Below are positions 9,659 to 18,786 of a stretch of 23,018 nt of DNA, one piece after another. The stretch spans positions 1 through 23,018 of the forward strand of contig JBBIGR010000059.1 in assembly GCA_037447435.1 (NCBI GenBank), given 5' to 3'. The translations under genes and the position numbers were made by a program. The DNA is from Fibrobacteria bacterium. Its GTDB lineage: Bacteria > Fibrobacterota > Chitinivibrionia > Chitinivibrionales > FEN-1185. A model generated the notes under the pieces. The model was not told the DNA's origin. It searched no databases and worked only from the letters and a program-made list of their open reading frames with translations. Each line of letters starts with the position of its first letter. Position 1 is the stretch's first letter.

Positions 9659-10888
9659 ATGAAAAATATGAAATTGATTGCGACCGGATTGCTCGGTTTC
9701 ATGACCGTCGTTTTTTGTTTGTCGTGCTATTACGAACATGCATTGCCGTGGCTGCGTATAGTCCAGGCCTTTGCCGAAGCGTCGATGGTCGGCGCATTGG
9801 CCGATTGGTTTGCCGTGGTCGTGCTATTCCGCCATCCCCTGGGAATTCCCATTCCCCATACGGCAATTATCCCCAAAAGCAAAGACAGAATCGGGTCCAT
9901 CCTCGGTAAATTCGTGGTTACCAATTTTCTGACAGCGGATGTCATAAAAAAGCATTTGATCAACAAAGTCGATTTTAGCGCGGCAATATCGAAATTACTG
10001 GAACAAAATGCGCGCGAAATTTCGAAAGAATCGGTTGCGTCGTTGCCAAAACTCCTGGAACTTGTCAAAGACGACGATATCCATGAGATAATAAAATCGA
10101 ATGTGTTGCCGCATATCCAACAGCTTAAACTTGCCAACATTGCGGGAGGCATGCTCGAATTCATGACGCACGGCGAATCGTTTCAAAACCTGTGCGACGA
10201 AGGCATACGGATAGGGCGAAGAATAGTCCGTCAAGGACTACCGGTCATACGGCGATACATTCTCGACGAACTTCCCACGATTTGGCCCGATTGGTTCGGC
10301 AAAAAGGACGTGGCAAACGGGCTTGCTAAATATATTATCGGTAAACTCAAGGACCAAATAGACACAATAGACAGGGATTCCGGGCACGCCACCCGAAAGG
10401 CGATCCAGCGTCAATTAAAAAACCTTGTGGAAAAACTGAAAACATCGCCCGAATATCAAACCAATGCCGTGCAAATTATTAATAAAATCATGGCCAACCC
10501 GATGTTTTCCGAGTATGTTTTGACCCTTTGGAAAGAACTCAAACGGTTCATTGATTCCAAAGTAAATAATCCCGACGAGGCAATGAACGACCGGTTGGAA
10601 ACAATGATAAAAGGTTTCGGAGCATCAATGAAATCCGACCCTGCGCTCCATAAGAAGTTGAACGAAACCGTGGAAAAAATACTGCTGGGCGCCTTGCCCC
10701 ATTTTGCGCCCGACATTCAAAAGATGATAGAAAAAACGGTGAAGGGCTGGACCGAAAAACAAATCGTGGAAACGCTTGAACCCGCGGTTGGCCAAGACCT
10801 GCAATTCATACGAATCAACGGCACGATAGTCGGCGGTTTGGCCGGCTTGGCCATTTACGGAATATCGCTGCTTTTGACTTCAATCTGA
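9659..10888 (+). CDS. DUF445 family membrane-anchored protein
   Basis: AFAEASMVGALADWFAVVVLFRHPLGIPIPHTAIIP at the N-terminus and VGQDLQFIRINGTIVGGLAG at the C-terminus. Confidence 0.93.
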   Translation: MKNMKLIATGLLGFMTVVFCLSCYYEHALPWLRIVQAFAEASMVGALADWFAVVVLFRHPLGIPIPHTAIIPKSKDRIGSILGKFVVTNFLTADVIKKHLINKVDFSAAISKLLEQNAREISKESVASLPKLLELVKDDDIHEIIKSNVLPHIQQLKLANIAGGMLEFMTHGESFQNLCDEGIRIGRRIVRQGLPVIRRYILDELPTIWPDWFGKKDVANGLAKYIIGKLKDQIDTIDRDSGHATRKAIQRQLKNLVEKLKTSPEYQTNAVQIINKIMANPMFSEYVLTLWKELKRFIDSKVNNPDEAMNDRLETMIKGFGASMKSDPALHKKLNETVEKILLGALPHFAPDIQKMIEKTVKGWTEKQIVETLEPAVGQDLQFIRINGTIVGGLAGLAIYGISLLLTSI

Positions 10889-11205
10889 TTCAGGACATTC
10901 ATTACCATGTCCTGCGTGTCAGTTTTCTCAATTGCTTGCAATATTTTACTGGGGATAAATACGGGGGGTCTGAGAAAAGAACAAATCTTGATTTTGTTTT
11001 CTGCAGAGGGAAAAACACATTCGGTCGCCAGCTCAAGTTCGCCGAAAGCGGCATTGGTAAGGGTTACCGATGCCATAAACAAGTCGGGATTAAGCGCTGC
11101 TTCATACAGCATTGTTTTAATCATGCTTTCCCTGTTAACGATAAAACCAAAGATAATTTCCCATCGTTCTCGGCTTATTTGTGTTTTTTTATTATTTTGA
11201 AGCAT
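10855..11205 (-). CDS. Hypothetical protein X1 (116 aa), paralogue of 18454-18786
   Basis: Aligns with the 18454-18786 product with one gap (39 identities over ~110 aa by hand), which supports both being real genes. Its last 34 nt overlap the DUF445 3' end. Confidence 0.8.
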   Translation of the reverse strand: MLQNNKKTQISRERWEIIFGFIVNRESMIKTMLYEAALNPDLFMASVTLTNAAFGELELATECVFPSAENKIKICSFLRPPVFIPSKILQAIEKTDTQDMVMNVLNQIEVKSSDIP

Positions 11206-11249
11206 AAGGTTTTTTTGCCCTTTGTTCTAAAAAGGGAAAGAAATTGTAA

Positions 11250-11279
11250 GCTGCCGGCAAGGTGGTTCTTGCCGGTAGC
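11250..11279. repeat. GC-rich inverted repeat (hairpin) in the X1/HTH1 intergenic region
   Basis: GCTGCCGGCAAG-gtggtt-CTTGCCGGTAGC forms 12 bp with one G-U on + (one mismatch on -). There is no U-tract. Confidence 0.75.
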
Positions 11280-11414
11280 GCGGATAACAAGCATGATACA
11301 GGTTAAAAGGTATTGCGCTCTATGCGTCGGAGGGTTTTTTATTGGCGCCGTCACTTTGTTTCTGTATCAATTTCAAAATAAAATAACTACTTACATAATT
11401 ACAAGTACTTTATT

Positions 11415-11621
11415 ATGATTTCGGTAAATGATAAACCTGGTGATTTTATTTCCTTATCCGAGGCCGCAAAAATTCGCGGTTGTTCCCATCAGGCAATTTC
11501 TGAACTTGTAAAGAAAAATCGGTTTAAAATATTTATGATTTCCGGGCATGTGCATTTAAGCCGAAAAGAAGTGACGGCATACAAGCCTGTCAATACCGGC
11601 AGACCTCCAAAGAAAAAATAG
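11415..11621 (+). CDS. Excisionase-like (HTH_17/MerR-like) DNA-binding protein HTH1
   Basis: FISLSEAAKIRGCSHQAISELVKKNRF...ISGHVHLSRKEV and a basic GRPPKKK tail. It has 29/64 ungapped identities to the 17996-18301 product. Confidence 0.85.
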   Translation: MISVNDKPGDFISLSEAAKIRGCSHQAISELVKKNRFKIFMISGHVHLSRKEVTAYKPVNTGRPPKKK

Positions 11622-11630
11622 GAACACCCA

Positions 11631-12479
11631 ATGCCAGACAAAACCGTATTTCCGAACCTAACCGGGTTAATAAAGCAAAGACATTCATGTCGTACCTATC
11701 AAAAAAAGGCGGTTGAAGCCGAAGCCAAGGGAAAGCTTCTCGATTTCATGGCCACGCATTGCAACGGCCTGTACAACGACAAAATAGAATTCGGTTTCAT
11801 ACAAAAAGACCCGGAAGCAAACAAAGAAATGAAATTGGCGTATGGTTTGTTAAAAAACCATAACGCCTATATCCTGGCAAAAACTCCAAACGCCAAAACC
11901 GCGCGAATAAGTTACGGTTATATTCTTGAAAAAATCGCATTAAAGGCAACCGAACTCGGGGTTGCAAGTTGCTGGGTCGGAATCGTCGATGTGCGCTATT
12001 TTCCGGAGCTTGTATTAAATGCCGATGAAATGCTTCCCGCGATTTTAGTCGTTGGCTATGCAACGGAAAAACGGCGGCTCAAAGAAAAACTCATCAGATT
12101 TGCCGTCAAAGCGCAACAACGGAAACCCTGGGACGAATTGTTTTATCTGAACGATTTTTCGGCAAAATTAACAAAAGAAAAAGCGGGAAGCTATTGCGAA
12201 GCATTGGAAATGCTGCGGCTGGCGCCGTCGGCCGGCAACTCTCAGCCGTGGAGAATCGTATTCGACGAGAGCCGGAACGCGTTTCATTTTTATAAAGAAC
12301 CTAAATCCCCGGCATACGAAGAGCGCGGCATGCACGATGTCGATATGGGTATTTGTATGTCGCATTTTGAATTGACAGCAAGGAATAACGGCTTGACGGG
12401 ATCGTGGAAAGCGATCGATGCGCATGCCCTTCCAAAAAACAACGCAGCACAATACGTGCTTAGTTGGGTGATCGGGTGA
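11631..12479 (+). CDS. Nitroreductase family protein (two-domain, TM1586-like)
   Basis: IKQRHSCRTY, GYILEKIALKATELGVASCWVG, RKPWDELF, LRLAPSAGNSQPWR and VDMGICMSHFEL. Confidence 0.92.
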   Translation: MPDKTVFPNLTGLIKQRHSCRTYQKKAVEAEAKGKLLDFMATHCNGLYNDKIEFGFIQKDPEANKEMKLAYGLLKNHNAYILAKTPNAKTARISYGYILEKIALKATELGVASCWVGIVDVRYFPELVLNADEMLPAILVVGYATEKRRLKEKLIRFAVKAQQRKPWDELFYLNDFSAKLTKEKAGSYCEALEMLRLAPSAGNSQPWRIVFDESRNAFHFYKEPKSPAYEERGMHDVDMGICMSHFELTARNNGLTGSWKAIDAHALPKNNAAQYVLSWVIG

Positions 12480-12509
12480 ACAGGCCGCAAAATAGGAGCA
12501 AAAAGAACA

Positions 12510-13862
12510 TTAAAATCCGGTCATGATGTCGACATTCTTGAGAAAATCGGAATCAAGCGCCTTAACGATTATGATGTCCTTTTGTTTAGACAAATCTTCC
12601 TGAACGATACTCCCTTTCGAAAGAATTTTTCCCAAAGAATCGGTAATGACGCTCACAACGGGTTTATCAAGGAAATCCTTGTTCGCGTCAATTACCTTTG
12701 CAATCCGTTTGTCGTTGAGTTCGACCAGGCTGCCCACGGGGTACAAAGAGGCATATTCAAGAAACGCTTTTACGAATTCTCCCGAAATCAGACCGAGCCG
12801 GGCCATCTTGATAAGATATAAAGCAATCTCGTGAGGGGTATGCGCATTGCGATAAGAACGCGGGGAGGTCATGGCTTCGTAAATATCCGCGATTTGGGCC
12901 ATTTTCGCATACCGGTGAATAAGAAGACTGTTTCTTTGTTTCGGATAGCCTTTGCTGTTTTCGCGTTCATGTATTTGATAGGCGATAAAGGGAATTGCTT
13001 CAGGCAGCTTTTTAATCTTTTCCAAAAGATTAAGCCCCAAGACCGGATGCTTCTGAATTATCAGAAATTCATCGTCGGTCAAGCGCCCTTGTTTTGTGCG
13101 GATTTCTTTTGGCAAAAGAAACATGCCAACGTCGTGTAAAAGCGCACCAATGCCGATATCGACGACCTGATTTTCGTTATAGCCGGAAGACGCCGCGATA
13201 TTTATCGCTAAAAGGCATACGTTGAGAGAATGGTGGTAAATGTAATCTTCCCCGGTATGCTTTATTCCCGATATATTAAGAAGAATATTCCGGTCTGTAA
13301 TGAATATCTTTTTAAACCGCTCGACAATAGCTTTTATCGGTCTGCCGTCCGAATTACTGTCCACCACGAGCGAATCGAGAATCTCCTTTACTTCCTTGAG
13401 TGCAAATTCATAGGAATACGTTATACCCGCCTTATAGTCATCCGATCGATCCTGTACCGAAATCTGCGACGCTCTGCTTTTAAGCGGAGGCCCCACAGGC
13501 CTGTCCGGGGTCTTGCCCAGTTGCTTGTCCAGCTCAAAAGTCTTATCGTTATGCAGGAGCTTTTTCAGACTGTTCCGGGTTATGGATTTCGGTTTTCCAA
13601 AAGAAGGTTTTTGGGCAGGCAAATGCTCGTCTATGTCCACTTTGGCAATGGGTTTGAAATCAGTGGTGAGCAGGCTGCTGAGCTTTTCTTCCTCCGTGGA
13701 AGGGATGGTGTATAACTCGAAAATATTACGGCGATTGAACGCGTCCAAATGGCTTTGAGTGATCCGTACGCCGCGCGATATAAGCAATTCGCCCTTTTCC
13801 GAATAATAATCCTGAGGCGCTAATGTTCCGACCACAAGAGACGATACGTTGACGGCTTTCAT
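12510..13862 (-). CDS. HD-GYP domain protein (putative cyclic-dinucleotide phosphodiesterase)
   Basis: YHHSLNV, ALLHDVGM, KHPVLG, HERENSKGYP, IADIYEAMTSPRSYR and YPVGSLVELND. ATG 13862 is the likely start. Confidence 0.92.
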   Translation of the reverse strand: MKAVNVSSLVVGTLAPQDYYSEKGELLISRGVRITQSHLDAFNRRNIFELYTIPSTEEEKLSSLLTTDFKPIAKVDIDEHLPAQKPSFGKPKSITRNSLKKLLHNDKTFELDKQLGKTPDRPVGPPLKSRASQISVQDRSDDYKAGITYSYEFALKEVKEILDSLVVDSNSDGRPIKAIVERFKKIFITDRNILLNISGIKHTGEDYIYHHSLNVCLLAINIAASSGYNENQVVDIGIGALLHDVGMFLLPKEIRTKQGRLTDDEFLIIQKHPVLGLNLLEKIKKLPEAIPFIAYQIHERENSKGYPKQRNSLLIHRYAKMAQIADIYEAMTSPRSYRNAHTPHEIALYLIKMARLGLISGEFVKAFLEYASLYPVGSLVELNDKRIAKVIDANKDFLDKPVVSVITDSLGKILSKGSIVQEDLSKQKDIIIVKALDSDFLKNVDIMTGF

Positions 13863-13962
13863 ACTTCCGTATCTTTCTGCAAAAGCAAGCAATGAATTCG
13901 GTACCCAAGGTTCCTAATCCATGATACCATTTTGGCGAGGCAGGTTTCAATATAAGGAGTGC

Positions 13963-13988
13963 AAAACCGTTCCGAAAATCGGAACCGG
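13963..13988 (-). terminator. Putative intrinsic terminator after the minus-strand genes ending at 14007
   Basis: Minus strand GTTCCGA-ttt-TCGGAAC followed by GG-TTTT, about 20 nt downstream of the stop. Confidence 0.5.
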
Positions 13989-14006
13989 CAGAATTATTTT
14001 CAAGGG

Positions 14007-14288
14007 TTATTTTCTCTTGTTCCGGGATGCGCCGAATAACCCGCCGCTGAATCCGCCGATGCCGATCATGAAACCAAAATCATACCATCGTCCGGCATTT
14101 GGAAATTCATAAATCCTATAATCGGTAAACAGGCTCACGATAAAGGAAACCGGAGCGATGAATCCGTGCAATAGGCCTTTCCAAAACCCTGCGGCATGGA
14201 GCGTCGGTATAAATGATTGATGTGCACAACCCGACAGTAATAGTACAAAAAGAACAATTGAAAAAAGACCGATTGACTTGTTCGACAT
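14007..14288 (-). CDS. Small conserved hypothetical membrane lipoprotein
   Basis: AGGAG RBS, lipobox LLSGC, and GFWKGLLHG...RIYEFPNAGRWYDFGF, a pattern I recognise in widespread uncharacterised proteins. Confidence 0.8.
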   Translation of the reverse strand: MSNKSIGLFSIVLFVLLLSGCAHQSFIPTLHAAGFWKGLLHGFIAPVSFIVSLFTDYRIYEFPNAGRWYDFGFMIGIGGFSGGLFGASRNKRK

Positions 14289-14325
14289 GGCAGTTCTCCT
14301 GGTTATGTTTATTATATTGCAGGGC

Positions 14326-15141
14326 TTAAATAATACGCAATTTATTTAAAATCTTTTTTGTTGTTTCGATCCGTAAATTATTACCTAAATCATTAATATT
14401 GTTGACGATAATATTCATGGCAAATATGTGCACTCCGGAATTTGTTTCAATAAATCCTACATACCAACCAAGTACTTTGCCGTTTAAACAAGTGCCGGTG
14501 CCGGTTTTTCCATAAAGCTTGTAAAGAGGGGTTGATTCATAGAGCATAATGCTTTTTACTTCTTTAATGGTTTTTACCGAAAAACCACTGAGCATATTCA
14601 AATAGAGTTTCTTTAAGAATTCAATTTGTTCGTCTATGGAAATTTGAATAGATCCGCAAAGCCAGAAAGAATCGACAGCGCCGGAAATGTCGTTATTTCC
14701 ATAACTAATTAAATCAACATATTTTTTCATTTGTATTTGTCCGACTCTTCGAGCCAATTCCTGATAATACCAAACGCAGGAATATTTAAAAGCCCGAGCA
14801 AGAGAAAGGTCTTGAAACCAATATTTGAACGGTTCCGATTGAAGCATTTCGGAATTTTTAGGATGAATTATACTGTCGTACTTAATAATGTATCCGGTGT
14901 CTTTTATTATGCCGGTTTCCAAACCAATAAGCGAATTTGCAATTTTAAAAGTAGAGCAAGGAGATATTCTTTTTTTACAATGTTCAGGATTAAAAACAGA
15001 ACGATCGCCTGTTTTAATATTGTAAACGGCAAATCCTCCGGTAAATCTACCGAAATAAGATGCAAGGTCAACAGTGTCTATCTTTTGAGCAAATGAAGTG
15101 ATAGCAAATAGTAGTAAAACCATAAAAAATGATCTGCCCAT
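14326..15141 (-). CDS. blaOXA: Class D (OXA-type) serine beta-lactamase homologue
   Basis: Signal peptide, PCSTFKI (SxxK), YSCVWYYQ (SxV), YGN, FWL, GKTGTG (KTG), GWYVGFIE and FAMNI. It is 271 aa with no BlaR1 protease domain. Confidence 0.9.
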   Translation of the reverse strand: MGRSFFMVLLLFAITSFAQKIDTVDLASYFGRFTGGFAVYNIKTGDRSVFNPEHCKKRISPCSTFKIANSLIGLETGIIKDTGYIIKYDSIIHPKNSEMLQSEPFKYWFQDLSLARAFKYSCVWYYQELARRVGQIQMKKYVDLISYGNNDISGAVDSFWLCGSIQISIDEQIEFLKKLYLNMLSGFSVKTIKEVKSIMLYESTPLYKLYGKTGTGTCLNGKVLGWYVGFIETNSGVHIFAMNIIVNNINDLGNNLRIETTKKILNKLRII

Positions 15142-15156
15142 ATTAAATCCCTTATG

Positions 15157-15483
15157 CTATTCCTTTTTCTTTTTATTGCCCTTACTTCCGATTTTCAACA
15201 AAATAACAATAGGGATTATCACGACAAGCAATGGGGTGAGGAAGGGAATTGCTATGGCAAGGAAAATCACGCCGATCAAACCCAAAATTGCGGGTATTAA
15301 AATGCCGACGCCTAAAAAAACAGAAATAATAATAAAAATTGCCAATAATAGTCCGCCGATTCCGCCCAATATTCCCAAAGTTATCCCGGTTGTGATACCT
15401 AAAATTCCAGGAAGAATAAACGTGCAACCCAATGCGACGAGCAAAATCCCGATAGATAACAGTACTATTGATTTAAAGGTCAT
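15157..15483 (-). CDS. Small Gly/Ile/Leu-rich integral membrane protein
   Basis: Almost entirely hydrophobic with a basic C-tail. ATG 15483 follows GGGAGG. Confidence 0.7.
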   Translation of the reverse strand: MTFKSIVLLSIGILLVALGCTFILPGILGITTGITLGILGGIGGLLLAIFIIISVFLGVGILIPAILGLIGVIFLAIAIPFLTPLLVVIIPIVILLKIGSKGNKKKKE

Positions 15484-15572
15484 CCCAGCCTCCCTCAGCA
15501 TTCGCATTTGCTTTTTGCTATTGTCTAGTGCTTATATCTTCTAACTTTCAACTTTTGAATTCTGACTTGGAT

Positions 15573-16334
15573 TTACGGCAAATTTGTTCTGAAGCCCAAT
15601 CCTAAAAAAGAAATTTCGCCTTCCTGCGTGGTTGCTGAAGAAATCGGCGATGTATTGAGGAGTCCAAACACATACCCCGATTCAATAAAAAGGAAACCGA
15701 TTTTTGCAATTGCGAATTCCGCCCCCAAACGAATTCCGAGCCCGAAATTGAACCGGGGAGTCAAACCGGCAAGGTCTTCGGACGTATTGGAAATATCGTC
15801 CGTATAGGTGGAGGCGAGTAGTATCGAGGCTTTGGGACCAACACCCAAATAAATTCCGCTCCGGCGAAACGGGAGAGTCACCTTGAAGTCGATAGGAATC
15901 GACAGCCAATGACGATCGATCCGGGATTTAACAAAAGGCATCTCGGTATTGTCCCCTTGGAAATACCCGGGAATGCTTGCCGCATACGCATCCATAAGCG
16001 CTTGCTGATATCCGATAGCGCCTTTAAGAGAAAGTACCCGGTTAAAAGATTTTTCATAACCAATTTCAAACGAATACTTAACAGCGTATTGAAATTCGAC
16101 CGGATAGCTTGAAAACGGAGTATAAGTGTTTTTCTTCTTTCCTTCTTTACCGTTCTGAATGTAGACGACGGAATCTCCGGCCAATACGCCGATTTGCGCT
16201 CCTTCAAAGTTATAAAGCTTGTCGCCGTTCATTGTTCCCTGGCTCACATTTGCTTTAAAAAAGATTCCGGAATCATCCGCATGTACGGAAAAAACGGTGA
16301 TAATTACAAATAATAACAAGGAATGGCGAATCAT
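15573..16334 (-). CDS. Outer-membrane beta-barrel protein (PorT/OMP_b-brl_2-like)
   Basis: Signal peptide MIRHSLLLFVIITVFSVHA and amphipathic strands WLSIPIDFKV, IYLGVGPKASILL, FNFGLGIRLGAEF and FIESGYVFGL. ATG 16334 follows AAAGG. Confidence 0.8.
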   Translation of the reverse strand: MIRHSLLLFVIITVFSVHADDSGIFFKANVSQGTMNGDKLYNFEGAQIGVLAGDSVVYIQNGKEGKKKNTYTPFSSYPVEFQYAVKYSFEIGYEKSFNRVLSLKGAIGYQQALMDAYAASIPGYFQGDNTEMPFVKSRIDRHWLSIPIDFKVTLPFRRSGIYLGVGPKASILLASTYTDDISNTSEDLAGLTPRFNFGLGIRLGAEFAIAKIGFLFIESGYVFGLLNTSPISSATTQEGEISFLGLGFRTNLP

Positions 16335-16443
16335 AGTGCCTTTCTTAATTAGTTTTACGCCCATCGGTTAACTCGGCAATTACTTGCGAGTAAACGGGGT
16401 TTTGCGCTTGAATAAAATGATTGAAGTTCAATTCAAATAATTT

Positions 16444-17448
16444 CTATTCTGCATTGTGCAATATACGCTTAATACAAATTAATCCTTTTGGTCCAACGAT
16501 CCGTTCGAAAACAAGCTCATTACTTTTTCGAAGTTCCACGGCCTGTAATTTTTGACCGCGAAGATTGTAATATTCACTGGTATATTTAATTTTATTCGGT
16601 TCGGCAATCGTAGACGACTTTCTAAAAACGCCATTAAGGTTTTTTGTATTGGGAGGTGTAAAAAGATTTGTGGTGATACTAATATCCGAGCCGGTGACAT
16701 GGCGTTCCGCATAAAATAAATCGAATTTATATTTTTGCCCAACAATCAAGCCCTGTAAGTTATCGAGATTTACCAAAGCCGACAATGGACCATGAAATCC
16801 CCCAAGGTCTATAACCATCGTGCCATTAACGAAAATCCAAATATCATCGTCGCCTTGAATTTGAAAAATTAGACCTGCTTGATAAGTAAATTCTCTATGA
16901 ATTTGCATGGTAAAACTATAATTATGCGGAGAGGATATTCCGGAAGGTTCATTTCCAAACCCTTTTCCATCGAGTCTGAAAAAGGAGGAATTATTGAACT
17001 GATATACGCCAGCAGTACCAGAAACTAAAGAAAATGGAAGAGAGTCTTGGATAGTTATATTCTTATATGCAGTATCAGTTTTTGTTATAGTATCTCGTAA
17101 ATACGTACCGTCCGTTGAATAAATAGGAATTGACAGATCTCCCGGTTGCCAGGGGATAAACCATTTTCCAACCCGTTGACTAAAATGTGGAGAGGAACCT
17201 GAAATAGGTTTTCCTTGAATATCAAGGGTAGATTGAACTTCATTTACATATAATCCATCAAGGTTTTTAAGGCAATTTAATGTTCCGCAAGTAGATAAAC
17301 CAGGTTCAAAATCCGGATTGCTTCCGTCCGCATGAAAATCGTAAAAGGTAACAGGGATTTGTAGAATTGTTTGAGCTGGAGTTTGAAATTGAAAAGCCAA
17401 AACCAGTATTATTGCAAAACAGTATTTTGAGGCGTTATTATTGGTCAT
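16444..17448 (-). CDS. Secreted fibro-slime (PA14-related) domain protein with C-terminal sorting-like tail
   Basis: FYDFHADGSNPDFE, HNYSFTM, FQIQGDDDIWIFVNG, IDLGGFH and FDLFYAERHVTGS, with tail YYNLRGQKL. ATG 17448 follows GAGG. Confidence 0.9.
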   Translation of the reverse strand: MTNNNASKYCFAIILVLAFQFQTPAQTILQIPVTFYDFHADGSNPDFEPGLSTCGTLNCLKNLDGLYVNEVQSTLDIQGKPISGSSPHFSQRVGKWFIPWQPGDLSIPIYSTDGTYLRDTITKTDTAYKNITIQDSLPFSLVSGTAGVYQFNNSSFFRLDGKGFGNEPSGISSPHNYSFTMQIHREFTYQAGLIFQIQGDDDIWIFVNGTMVIDLGGFHGPLSALVNLDNLQGLIVGQKYKFDLFYAERHVTGSDISITTNLFTPPNTKNLNGVFRKSSTIAEPNKIKYTSEYYNLRGQKLQAVELRKSNELVFERIVGPKGLICIKRILHNAE

Positions 17449-17699
17449 TGATAGTATCCTCTTCGGTGTAAAGATCATTCGATCCTGTCATATATTTCTG
17501 GAGATATTGTAAAGGATTCATCGAGCCTAATTGGTAAAGAAGAAGCATTGCCTTTTTATTATTTATTGCTTATATATGATAAAATAAACTCCATCCAAAA
17601 GAAAGCATATTTTATTGTACAAAATCTACAGTCCCAATTTTTAGATGCAATTTAGTTTTAATTCTATTTTCTTTCTCCAAATAATAATTTTCTACTATC

Positions 17700-17995
17700 A
17701 TGCCTAAAACGGAATCCAATATCTACTATCCGGGTCCGGATTTCCTCACCGGAATCATCGGCCGCACGTTATACGCAGCCTGGCTTTATAAGAAAGCGCG
17801 AAACGCTTACCGCCGGGACTTGGCGGCAAAAAAGCCTTTTGCGATAAACGGATCTTGCGCTTTGTATCAAAAACTGATTCACGAAGCCGTCATTGCGGGG
17901 CAGGGTAAAGGTCCGTTCTCCGGGGAAACGCTCGATTGGAACCTAATCATTTTATGGGACACGGGAAAAATCAAAAACAATTTCGAATTGCAGTG
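17700..17995 (+). pseudogene. Probable 3'-truncated hypothetical gene, resembling the N-terminal part of an HNH-like family
   Basis: PDFLTG..Y..WLYKKA..RRD..KKPFA..Y.KLIHEAV...PFSGETLDWNLI..WD resembles (from recall) a family that continues with PTVDH...N..K. Here the frame instead runs into the antisense of HTH2 (CYFFFFNF) and stops at 18086. Confidence 0.5.
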
Positions 17996-18301
17996 CTACT
18001 TTTTTTTCTTCAACTTTGTTCCATACTTTACAGAAGGTTTTTCCGCCACTTTGAGCGTTGATGCGGCATCGGCCGGGGACATATAGGCCGTATTGGGATC
18101 ATTGCGAAACGGCCTGCCCGCCTTAAGCGGCTTATAGGACTCGACTTCCATCCTGTTTAAAAATTCCCGCCCGCCAATCGATACCGGGTTGAACCTGCCT
18201 TTAGCCACAAGCTTGGTTATCGATTGGCGCGAAACTCCGCGTAGGCGCGCAGCATCGGCAAACGAAATAAGGTCTTCAAGTTTAAAAAGAGAGAGCGGCA
18301 T
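17996..18301 (-). CDS. Excisionase-like (HTH_17/MerR-like) DNA-binding protein HTH2
   Basis: LISFADAARLRGVSRQSITKLVAKGRF...IGGREFLNRMEV..YKP...GRP. Paralogue of 11415-11621. Confidence 0.85.
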   Translation of the reverse strand: MPLSLFKLEDLISFADAARLRGVSRQSITKLVAKGRFNPVSIGGREFLNRMEVESYKPLKAGRPFRNDPNTAYMSPADAASTLKVAEKPSVKYGTKLKKKK

Positions 18302-18311
18302 AATTAATAGG

Positions 18312-18346
18312 TTGACATTGTTACCGTATTAGTGTATATTATACAC
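18312..18346 (+). promoter_or_regulatory. Sigma-70 promoter towards X2 overlapped by a palindromic operator candidate
   Basis: TTGACA (18312-18317)-17 nt-TATATT (18335-18340). The palindrome GTGTATA-T-TATACAC (18332-18346) also gives TATAAT on the minus strand (18338-18343). Confidence 0.7.
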
Positions 18347-18453
18347 ATGTCGTTTAAAACCGAATCCTTTGTAACTGTAATTCAATCTGCGCATCCCGCG
18401 TAGATATTCTCTCTATAGTTACTATTCATCCTTTGTAGGAAAGGATTACCCGT

Positions 18454-18786
18454 ATGTTTGAAAATAATAAAAAAACTCAAATGACCACGCAAAGAGGTGC
18501 ATTTATCTTTGATTTCCTGGTCGAGCATGAAAATTATATCAAAGCCCTGTTGGCCGAAGCCGTTCACCCGGACATGATACGCGTCGACGTCTATATCGCA
18601 AATGCCACGCAAGGCACTCCAAAAATTATTGTAGAAACTATGGAGCCAAGCGGCGGCGAAAAGCTTCTTGTTCATTCCATTCAAAGGCCGTTCCCGTATA
18701 TGCCGCAGGCAATAGCCCGCGAAATAGAAAACGTGACATTCTATCACATGGTCAGTATGTTGGTAAATCAAGTCGACATAATTTGA
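18454..18786 (+). CDS. Hypothetical protein X2 (110 aa), paralogue of 10855-11205
   Basis: AAAGGA RBS 8 nt before the ATG. About 35% identical to X1, with shared NNKKTQ, IFxF, PD, NA, PS, RP, IE, MV and NQ. Confidence 0.85.
   Translation: MFENNKKTQMTTQRGAFIFDFLVEHENYIKALLAEAVHPDMIRVDVYIANATQGTPKIIVETMEPSGGEKLLVHSIQRPFPYMPQAIAREIENVTFYHMVSMLVNQVDII

Follow-up and report, generated by a model that had tools for sequence, protein, structure and literature searches.

Among the closest described systems is Kpn2I, in which the controller (C) and methyltransferase (M) genes are divergent, their −10 boxes overlap, and C represses the strong M promoter; C.Kpn2I is an XRE-like protein that binds within its own coding region (both according to the accessible part of PMC6237814). 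In anti-CRISPR (Acr)–anti-CRISPR-associated (Aca) loci, genes for helix-turn-helix (HTH) proteins of the HTH_17 type adjoin Acr homologs, and Aca2 represses its own operon, as set out in the available portion of that source (PMC6739104). Mad1 heads the eight-gene MADS operon (accessible section of PMC13662399). Here, we describe a divergent two-gene module found in a 23,018-nucleotide (nt) stretch of DNA, hereafter the window, from a Fibrobacteria bacterium of the order Chitinivibrionales (GenBank assembly GCA_037447435.1, contig JBBIGR010000059.1, positions 1 to 23,018 of the forward strand). The module pairs an orphan protein of ~110 residues (X) with a small HTH_17-like neighbor (H), and it occurs twice in the window, as copy 1 (X1/H1) and copy 2 (X2/H2). 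The reading that we favor, tentatively, is of a repressor-gated module in which X would be a toxic or host-modulating effector.

A first-pass annotation of the window had proposed the four open reading frames (ORFs), and all were found where it placed them (Table 1), as two inverted copies with head-to-head gene order in each. Its hand counts were also reproduced: X1 and X2 share 39 identities with one internal gap in a global alignment (local score 180 vs. a maximum of 53 in 1000 shuffles), H1 and H2 agree at 29 of their first 64 positions (score 136 vs. a shuffle maximum of 44), and the X genes are identical at 26 of their opening 30 nt. Each copy is a self-contained two-gene unit of about 0.75 kb. 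Because a single 17.6-kb public contig spans both copies with zero differences, the pair is no assembly artifact, with the proviso that the sequencing run is possibly the source of the window DNA. In what follows, G000 is the window's own genome, other G numbers are further genomes of the phylum set, and C stands for contig.

At the sequence level, X is a real and very rare family. A profile search of 1.84 billion protein representatives gave 24 matches, of which 22 are credible stand-alone proteins (40–154 amino acids, aa); P0025 and P0026 (939 and 1599 aa) were dropped as spurious repeat proteins. Ten homologs that were looked up belong to clusters of one to seven members, for which the best name is “hypothetical protein,” and two homologs are named Chitinivibrionales. 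Across 296 genomes of the phylum, X is present at 11 loci in eight genomes, every one of them within the host's order. Eight of these loci are intact, one is cut to 52 aa beside an intact H (G042), and two are remnants (G000:C28 and G043). The distribution is patchy (two of five congeners, four of seven genomes of another genus), and the three X paralogs of one genome share 29%–35% identity. A scan of genome contigs recovered the G003 copy alone, and a metagenome scan returned a sole match of 21 residues, which was spurious. Searches of 50,697 phage records and 72,556 plasmids, along with two pattern scans of IMG/VR, found no X, with one query or a few patterns used for each. Neither the X family nor the X–H module is described in the literature searched, a search that most subscription papers fall outside.

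The first-pass annotation could not assign X to a family, and X indeed lies outside characterized families, with no match in Pfam, PHROGs, NCBIfam, PADLOC, or a PDB profile search. A PDB profile match to ribosomal uS19 (E 0.48) was judged to be a chance match because the matched stretch begins within what is predicted to be a helix and uS19 appears in none of the fold searches. The first AlphaFold model (mean predicted local distance difference test, pLDDT, 86.9) comprises a strand, two helices, a three-strand meander, two helices, and a strand, in agreement with the helix, three strands, and two helices read earlier from the hydrophobicity pattern. In a second model, made with 26 sequences, pLDDT was 88.2, the predicted template modeling score (pTM) was down to 0.68, and neither the third strand nor the terminal one formed; the drop and the unformed strands hint that X may form an intertwined oligomer. 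There was no usable match in ESM Atlas, Foldseek PDB, or Foldseek viral. The best fold match (VIA-align) was a mitoribosomal chain (Z 6.5, root-mean-square deviation [rmsd] 4.2, 101 aligned residues), followed by SodB (Z 5.1), and a further fold search gave Z 4.1 at best. None reaches the tool's mark of Z 8, and absence of a match does not show a new fold. We also considered and rejected an Fe/Mn superoxide dismutase fold, given that no His or Asp column is conserved at ≥55% in 26 sequences; the likeness in shape is merely Z 5.1–6.5 with rmsd about 4. Conserved columns are N4, R14, W15, P39, M41, R43, N50, G54, P65, R78, P79, I91, and N105, with Q106 invariant. No catalytic set of His, Cys, Tyr, Ser, or acidic residues is conserved in the alignment, and the proteins are for the most part weakly acidic.

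The pairing of X with H recurs well beyond the window. Head-to-head H genes stand at seven of the 11 X loci (both window copies, G003, G005, G042, G045, and G047), and among the eight intact X genes, six have H, one has an XRE repressor, and one is alone. X is not always head-to-head with an HTH_17 gene, a point that the first-pass annotation had proposed to check: one locus (G020) has the XRE repressor instead of H, with radC behind, and three have no partner. This XRE locus (L006, G020:C791) lies on a contig of just 2 kb and looks prophage- or island-like next to radC; its repressor is a two-HTH protein of 192 aa that faces X, and its start codon overlaps the −35 box. The intact X without any HTH gene is the third intact X of G000 (L001, G000:C93:1211-3100), where the upstream DNA has been replaced by repeats, and the decayed fourth, at G000:C28, is 79% identical to it in DNA, with one repeat adjoining both. 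The C93 gene is embedded in multi-copy repeats (19 upstream and 45 downstream blastn rows, self-hits included).

A profile built from the seven X-linked H copies has 11 matches in eight of the 296 genomes, seven of which adjoin X. H matches HTH_17 and not HTH_3: its HTH_17 (PF12728) scores are 20.1 and 26.5 bits against a Pfam cut-off of 27, which a relative at locus L032 passes (31.4). TIGR01764 matches were obtained for six of seven H members, all below the cut-off (19.7 vs. 28.8). All five H proteins scanned resemble Mad1 of the MADS defense operon (PADLOC PDLC04133; E 1.7e-7 to 0.005). No match to H was found in viral, phage, or plasmid collections.

New evidence comes from the DNA between the two genes. 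As the first-pass annotation had it, the promoter position is kept in both copies: a TTGnnn lies 7–13 nt from the H start codon, then comes a TATATT-like −10 box. The same layout (TTGnnn-17/18-TATATT-like, at +7 to +13 from the H start) is found at 7/7 X–H loci and at two of the four other H loci (L032 and L033); on the opposite strand, a TATAAT-like box overlaps the TATATT, 28–36 nt before the H start. TTG-N20/21-TATATT is commoner than its reversed control across the 21 phylum genomes scanned, and for this reason TTG-N-TATATT looks like the host's promoter type. Centered directly behind the −35 hexamer is a palindrome. Over seven loci that are not closely related (G045 and G042 were omitted as kin of G047), the summed pairs come to 50 versus 37.1 ± 2.0 (0 of 2000 shuffles with the boxes fixed), and this center is the best of the whole scan from −30 to +45. 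Six of the seven loci reach 6/11 pairs at the common center, compared with 11 of the 148 TTG-N20-TATATT sites of G000 (Fisher p 3e-6). The sequence of the palindrome arms varies from locus to locus. Copy 2 and its G005 counterpart are similar in H (53% identity) and in the promoter (86% over 43 nt) and dissimilar in X (36%), which argues that the operator follows H, not X; the trees of X and H are poorly resolved as to co-divergence. Three more G003 promoters carry palindromes without H or X. At L033 (G005:C35:40972-44175), an H relative has the best palindrome of all (10/11 pairs) with no gene seen in the X slot; a GIY-YIG-like ORF and an IS1-like fragment adjoin it.

The transcriptional control of X that had been suggested earlier thereby gains new, sequence-level support from an operator-like palindrome over the −35 box. 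A protein on the palindrome would occlude the −35 box of P(X) while lying just behind the predicted H start site, from which both repression of X and self-regulation would follow. We consider it probable that H binds the palindrome and represses X. It is about evenly balanced whether each H reads its own operator, such that copies 1 and 2 would be insulated from each other.

H has a further setting that bears on its role. At L032 (G003:C17:99240-102449), an H of the same subfamily lies opposite an N6_N4_Mtase gene and ahead of a 229-aa ORF that has no family match and is PD-(D/E)xK-like by eye. Taken by itself, L032 likely encodes type II restriction-modification under an excisionase-like controller. 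Because the same unit of H, promoter, and palindrome faces a methyltransferase, and because no integrase or terminal repeats were seen, H is likely to be a self-regulating repressor and not an excisionase. The idea in the first-pass annotation that H might be a directionality factor and X a mobility factor is not borne out: no integrase or phage gene was seen in the window or, by ORF reading, in five loci of 14–20 kb, and eight loci show no terminal or flanking repeats or target duplication. A related alternative is that X is itself a regulator (Cro/CII-like or an antirepressor) and that the pair is what remains of a lysis–lysogeny or excision switch from an uncharacterized prophage or integrative element. 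In its favor, the G020 X faces the 192-aa XRE repressor next to radC, H resembles excisionase/Cox-type proteins (the sub-cut-off TIGR01764 matches), and X has a conserved basic N-terminus plus R14, R43, and R78. However, no HTH match was obtained for X, most X proteins are net acidic, and selection persists without a prophage or integrative element, of which the loci read show no gene. We regard this alternative as quite unlikely.

The two window copies are old. Between them, synonymous sites are near saturation (proportion of differences at synonymous sites, pS, 0.73; at nonsynonymous sites, pN, 0.44). In relatives, X has a ratio of nonsynonymous to synonymous substitution rates (dN/dS) of 0.27 in the unsaturated full-length pair G045/G047, and H has 0.10–0.11 in the three pairs among G042, G045, and G047. 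With this divergence and with purifying selection in relatives, the pair is not a one-off recent duplication, an outcome that would have undercut the earlier account. In another study's contigs, six of the six listed differences in X2 are synonymous (depth 2.7). Neighbors differ at each X locus, save for G042 and G045, which share one site. This site, adjacent to cbiO, is filled in G045 and G042 and empty in G033, G043, and G046, and the G047 copy lies elsewhere. A compact unit at unrelated sites, with empty sites in kin, is what might be expected if the module were a minimal mobile element of a new kind and X were its recombinase or another mobility factor. We consider this highly improbable, because eight loci lack terminal or flanking repeats, the module ends pair no better than shuffles (z +0.8 to −2.1 at six loci), X conserves no catalytic set of His, Tyr, Ser, or acidic residues, and the copies within one genome are saturated at synonymous sites. 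Given that the module is without a mobility gene, it rather probably spreads as a passenger of other transfer events.

A second layer of control had been claimed in the form of a hairpin that hides the ribosome-binding site in both copies. The hairpins are present in both (Shine-Dalgarno [SD] tract paired with probability 0.96), but the leaders themselves are not conserved. Leader length is 163 nt in copy 1 and 106 nt in copy 2, and 51–206 nt across the six loci folded. Compared with 600 host genes, pairing of the SD tract to upstream RNA exceeds the 90th percentile at six of the eight loci scored (G003 was unscored). Whole-leader folding gives z from 0.0 to −6.1 (eight leaders). Because the leaders are unalignable past the promoter, no conserved riboswitch or antisense RNA was found in them. 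No conserved upstream ORF was found in the leaders, Rfam gave four sub-threshold matches, none credible, and there is no long-range 5′–3′ pairing in the module. In the copy-2 leader, the large hairpin comes from a dispersed repeat that has 47 nhmmer matches in G000. The window copy and the 46 further matches (e.g., C36:44601-44664, C9:103588-103651, and C17:9216-9275) have the palindrome ATCT(G/A)CGC-N5-GCGTAGAT, then a TATAGT-like box, and often lie upstream of same-strand genes; we read this ~60-bp repeat as a mobile promoter or global operator.

Under the reading that we favor, H would bind its own palindrome, which overlies the −35 box of the back-to-back promoter, and thereby keep X off, while also limiting its own expression. 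Where H is absent (as upon entry into a new cell), lost, or inactivated, the promoter would fire and X would be made in a burst; in some copies, the SD hairpin may damp translation. X would then act as an effector that is dose-limited and has no enzymatic activity, and its most likely action would be to inhibit growth or to modulate the host. It is quite possible, somewhat short of probable, that an excess of X harms or burdens the cell; pointing this way are the two putative damping layers, the patchy presence, the frequent decay (in G042, X went before H), and the diverged paralogs with their own operators. A predicted X–H complex scored 0.01 against a mark of 0.32, which is evidence neither way.

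Several observations weigh against this reading. Copy 1 has a weak promoter and an off-centered palindrome (2/11 pairs at the common center), the pairs at the center number just five in G045, four in G042, and three at the XRE locus, and the center was spotted by eye before it was tested. Against shuffles of its own leader, the SD hairpin stands out (≤5%) at only three of nine loci (copy 1, copy 2, and G042), and by this measure SD pairing is absent in G003 and G020; hence the translational control proposed earlier stands as regards the presence of hairpins and goes beyond own-leader shuffles at those three loci alone, so that translational damping is plausible. The H profile is biased toward X-linked copies because it was built from them, the pairing rule comes from eight genomes of three genera (with G042, G045, and G047 close kin), and the genomic context of 19 of the 22 credible X homologs lies outside the pairing count. 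The partial X of G042 has a dN/dS of 0.44–0.46. No recognized defense genes were seen beside X in the loci examined by ORF reading, which is not a full scan. The intact H-free X at G000:C93 weighs against strong toxicity, as a strongly toxic X would hardly permit such a copy, although repeats have taken the place of its upstream DNA. Finally, H binding, X expression, and X toxicity are all predictions from sequence.

It may be asked whether X is instead an ordinary accessory protein, such as a small enzyme, a chaperone, or a ligand binder, that H simply represses and that has nothing to do with toxicity or conflict. The neighbors are mostly metabolic or unassigned, an H-free intact X exists, and near-invariance is seen at a few polar positions (Q106, R78, N105, and G54). 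Yet the patchiness, the decay of three of 11 loci, the new site nearly each time, and the three paralogs at 29%–35% identity fit conflict genes better, and we view this explanation as very unlikely. Another candidate is a counter-defense or establishment protein of the anti-CRISPR or anti-restriction kind. A burst of X on arrival in a new cell would be followed by shut-off through H, much as Aca silences acr, and the copies would be stranded relics of mobile elements. X is small (about 110 aa), mostly acidic or neutral, and without a domain; it has an HTH neighbor with an inverted repeat over the promoter, as well as the HTH_17 and Aca2 precedents noted at the outset; and a methyltransferase occupies the X slot in L032. 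Against this, the phage, plasmid, and IMG/VR searches were negative, Acr–Aca loci are same-strand operons in the accessible part of PMC6739104, and Cas1 is strong in just two of five X genomes searched. A simple repeat scan found no CRISPR array in G000, and self-targeting therefore could not be shown. We judge the counter-defense explanation unlikely. Weak Cas1-like matches in frames of ~315–320 aa (G000:C96:875-1510, G003:C30, and G047:C1) are possibly solo Cas1 homologs.

A bolder version of the repressor-gated reading would make X a new class of toxic or anti-phage effector, with an undescribed fold that is probably an intertwined oligomer. An excisionase-like repressor plus a ribosome-site hairpin would restrain X with no need for contact with an antitoxin; the operator would co-diverge with the repressor, and the portable controller would be reused for restriction-modification genes. 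We think this version rather unlikely.

Table 1. Genes and predicted control elements of the two X–H copies (window positions)
Feature	Position	Strand	Remarks
X1	10855..11205	-	116 aa, family not assigned; 3′ end overlaps convergent DUF445 gene by 34 nt
Hairpin pairing X1 AAAGGG Shine-Dalgarno-like tract	11218..11236	-	
Predicted X1 promoter TTGTAA-18-TATTTT	11375..11404	-	weak, 8/12; absent from promoter-scan listing
Predicted copy-1 operator TACTT-N10-AAGTA	11388..11407	.	over −35 box; 6/11 pairs at half-step shift, 2/11 at common center
H1	11415..11621	+	68 aa, HTH_17/excisionase-like winged helix, predicted repressor
H2	17996..18301	-	101 aa, HTH_17-like; C-terminal tail common to G005 copy
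Predicted copy-2 operator, imperfect palindrome ATAGGTTGACA-T-TGTTACCGTAT	18307..18329	.	8/11 pairs, center just behind −35 box
Predicted X2 promoter TTGACA-17-TATATT	18312..18340	+	11/12
Predicted H2 −10 box TATAAT	18338..18343	-	overlaps X2 −10 box, 36 nt before H2 start
Dispersed ~60-bp intergenic repeat copy in X2 leader	18368..18427	+	not a conserved module part
Hairpin pairing X2 AAAGGA Shine-Dalgarno tract	18428..18446	+	
X2	18454..18786	+	110 aa, family not assigned

The genes around and between the copies are ordinary accessory genes by Pfam (DUF445, nitroreductase, HD domain, transpeptidase/class D beta-lactamase-like, PA14, and hydrolases). With the window DUF445 as query, no match was found in any of the five congeners. 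The product of 14326-15141 (−) has a Pfam Transpeptidase domain, and presumably resembles a class D beta-lactamase or BlaR-type sensor domain. A 128-aa ORF at 17700-18086 (+) overlaps the end of H2; it belongs to a multi-copy family, not assigned, that forms tandem pairs on C2, C9, C10, and C11, and it is single here and perhaps truncated.

From an uncultured order, X adds a protein family that lacks annotation and whose confident structural model has no match in fold searches, and one genome offers two natural H/operator pairs that are expected to be orthogonal. The occurrence of a methyltransferase at one locus and X at seven suggests that “excisionase-like” HTH_17 genes can act as portable controllers of varied cargo. 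If so, such controllers would be guilt-by-association markers for new conflict genes. The reach is limited, with X in eight of 296 phylum genomes and its proposed function putative.

When set beside excisionase/Cox-type proteins, H shares the fold family (PF12728 and TIGR01764, with scores just below the cut-offs), but no integrase or attachment (att) sites were seen, and the predicted H operator is palindromic. Xis-type proteins bind direct repeats. Type II toxin–antitoxin pairs are alike in having two small genes, patchy presence, insulated paralogs, and a putative toxin that decays first (G042); however, X and H are divergent at 7/7 loci and not co-transcribed, and X matches no toxin family. 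X–H thus fails membership of both type II toxin–antitoxin pairs and Xis–integrase units. It differs from insertion sequences, miniature inverted-repeat transposable elements, and integron cassettes in having no terminal inverted repeats, target duplication, or paired ends. The likeness to Mad1, presumably a repressor, lies in the sequence of H (all five proteins scanned), with no other mad gene seen. Like Acr–Aca loci, the module has a domain-less protein of <200 aa beside an HTH regulator with a presumed repressing role, whereas Acr–Aca pairs form same-strand operons on phages or islands in the available portion of their description (PMC6739104), and X–H is divergent, chromosomal, and not found in the phage and plasmid sets searched. 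The comparison with Kpn2I, limited to the accessible part of its source, is the closest in layout: the regulator is divergent from the regulated gene, the promoters overlap, the predicted site is at the −35 end near the regulator start, the promoter is strong and of sigma-70 type, and L032 has the H subfamily facing a methyltransferase. H differs in being HTH_17-like with an intergenic palindrome over the −35 box, whereas C.Kpn2I is XRE-like and binds inside its own gene. X is no methyltransferase (by Pfam, NCBIfam, and PADLOC), no endonuclease gene is present at X loci, and a methyltransferase is found in this position at the X-free L032 locus alone. By analogy, X–H would work like the Kpn2I controller and an Aca-repressed acr gene, yet it belongs to neither group; it is a new protein family within a new variant of a known regulatory layout.

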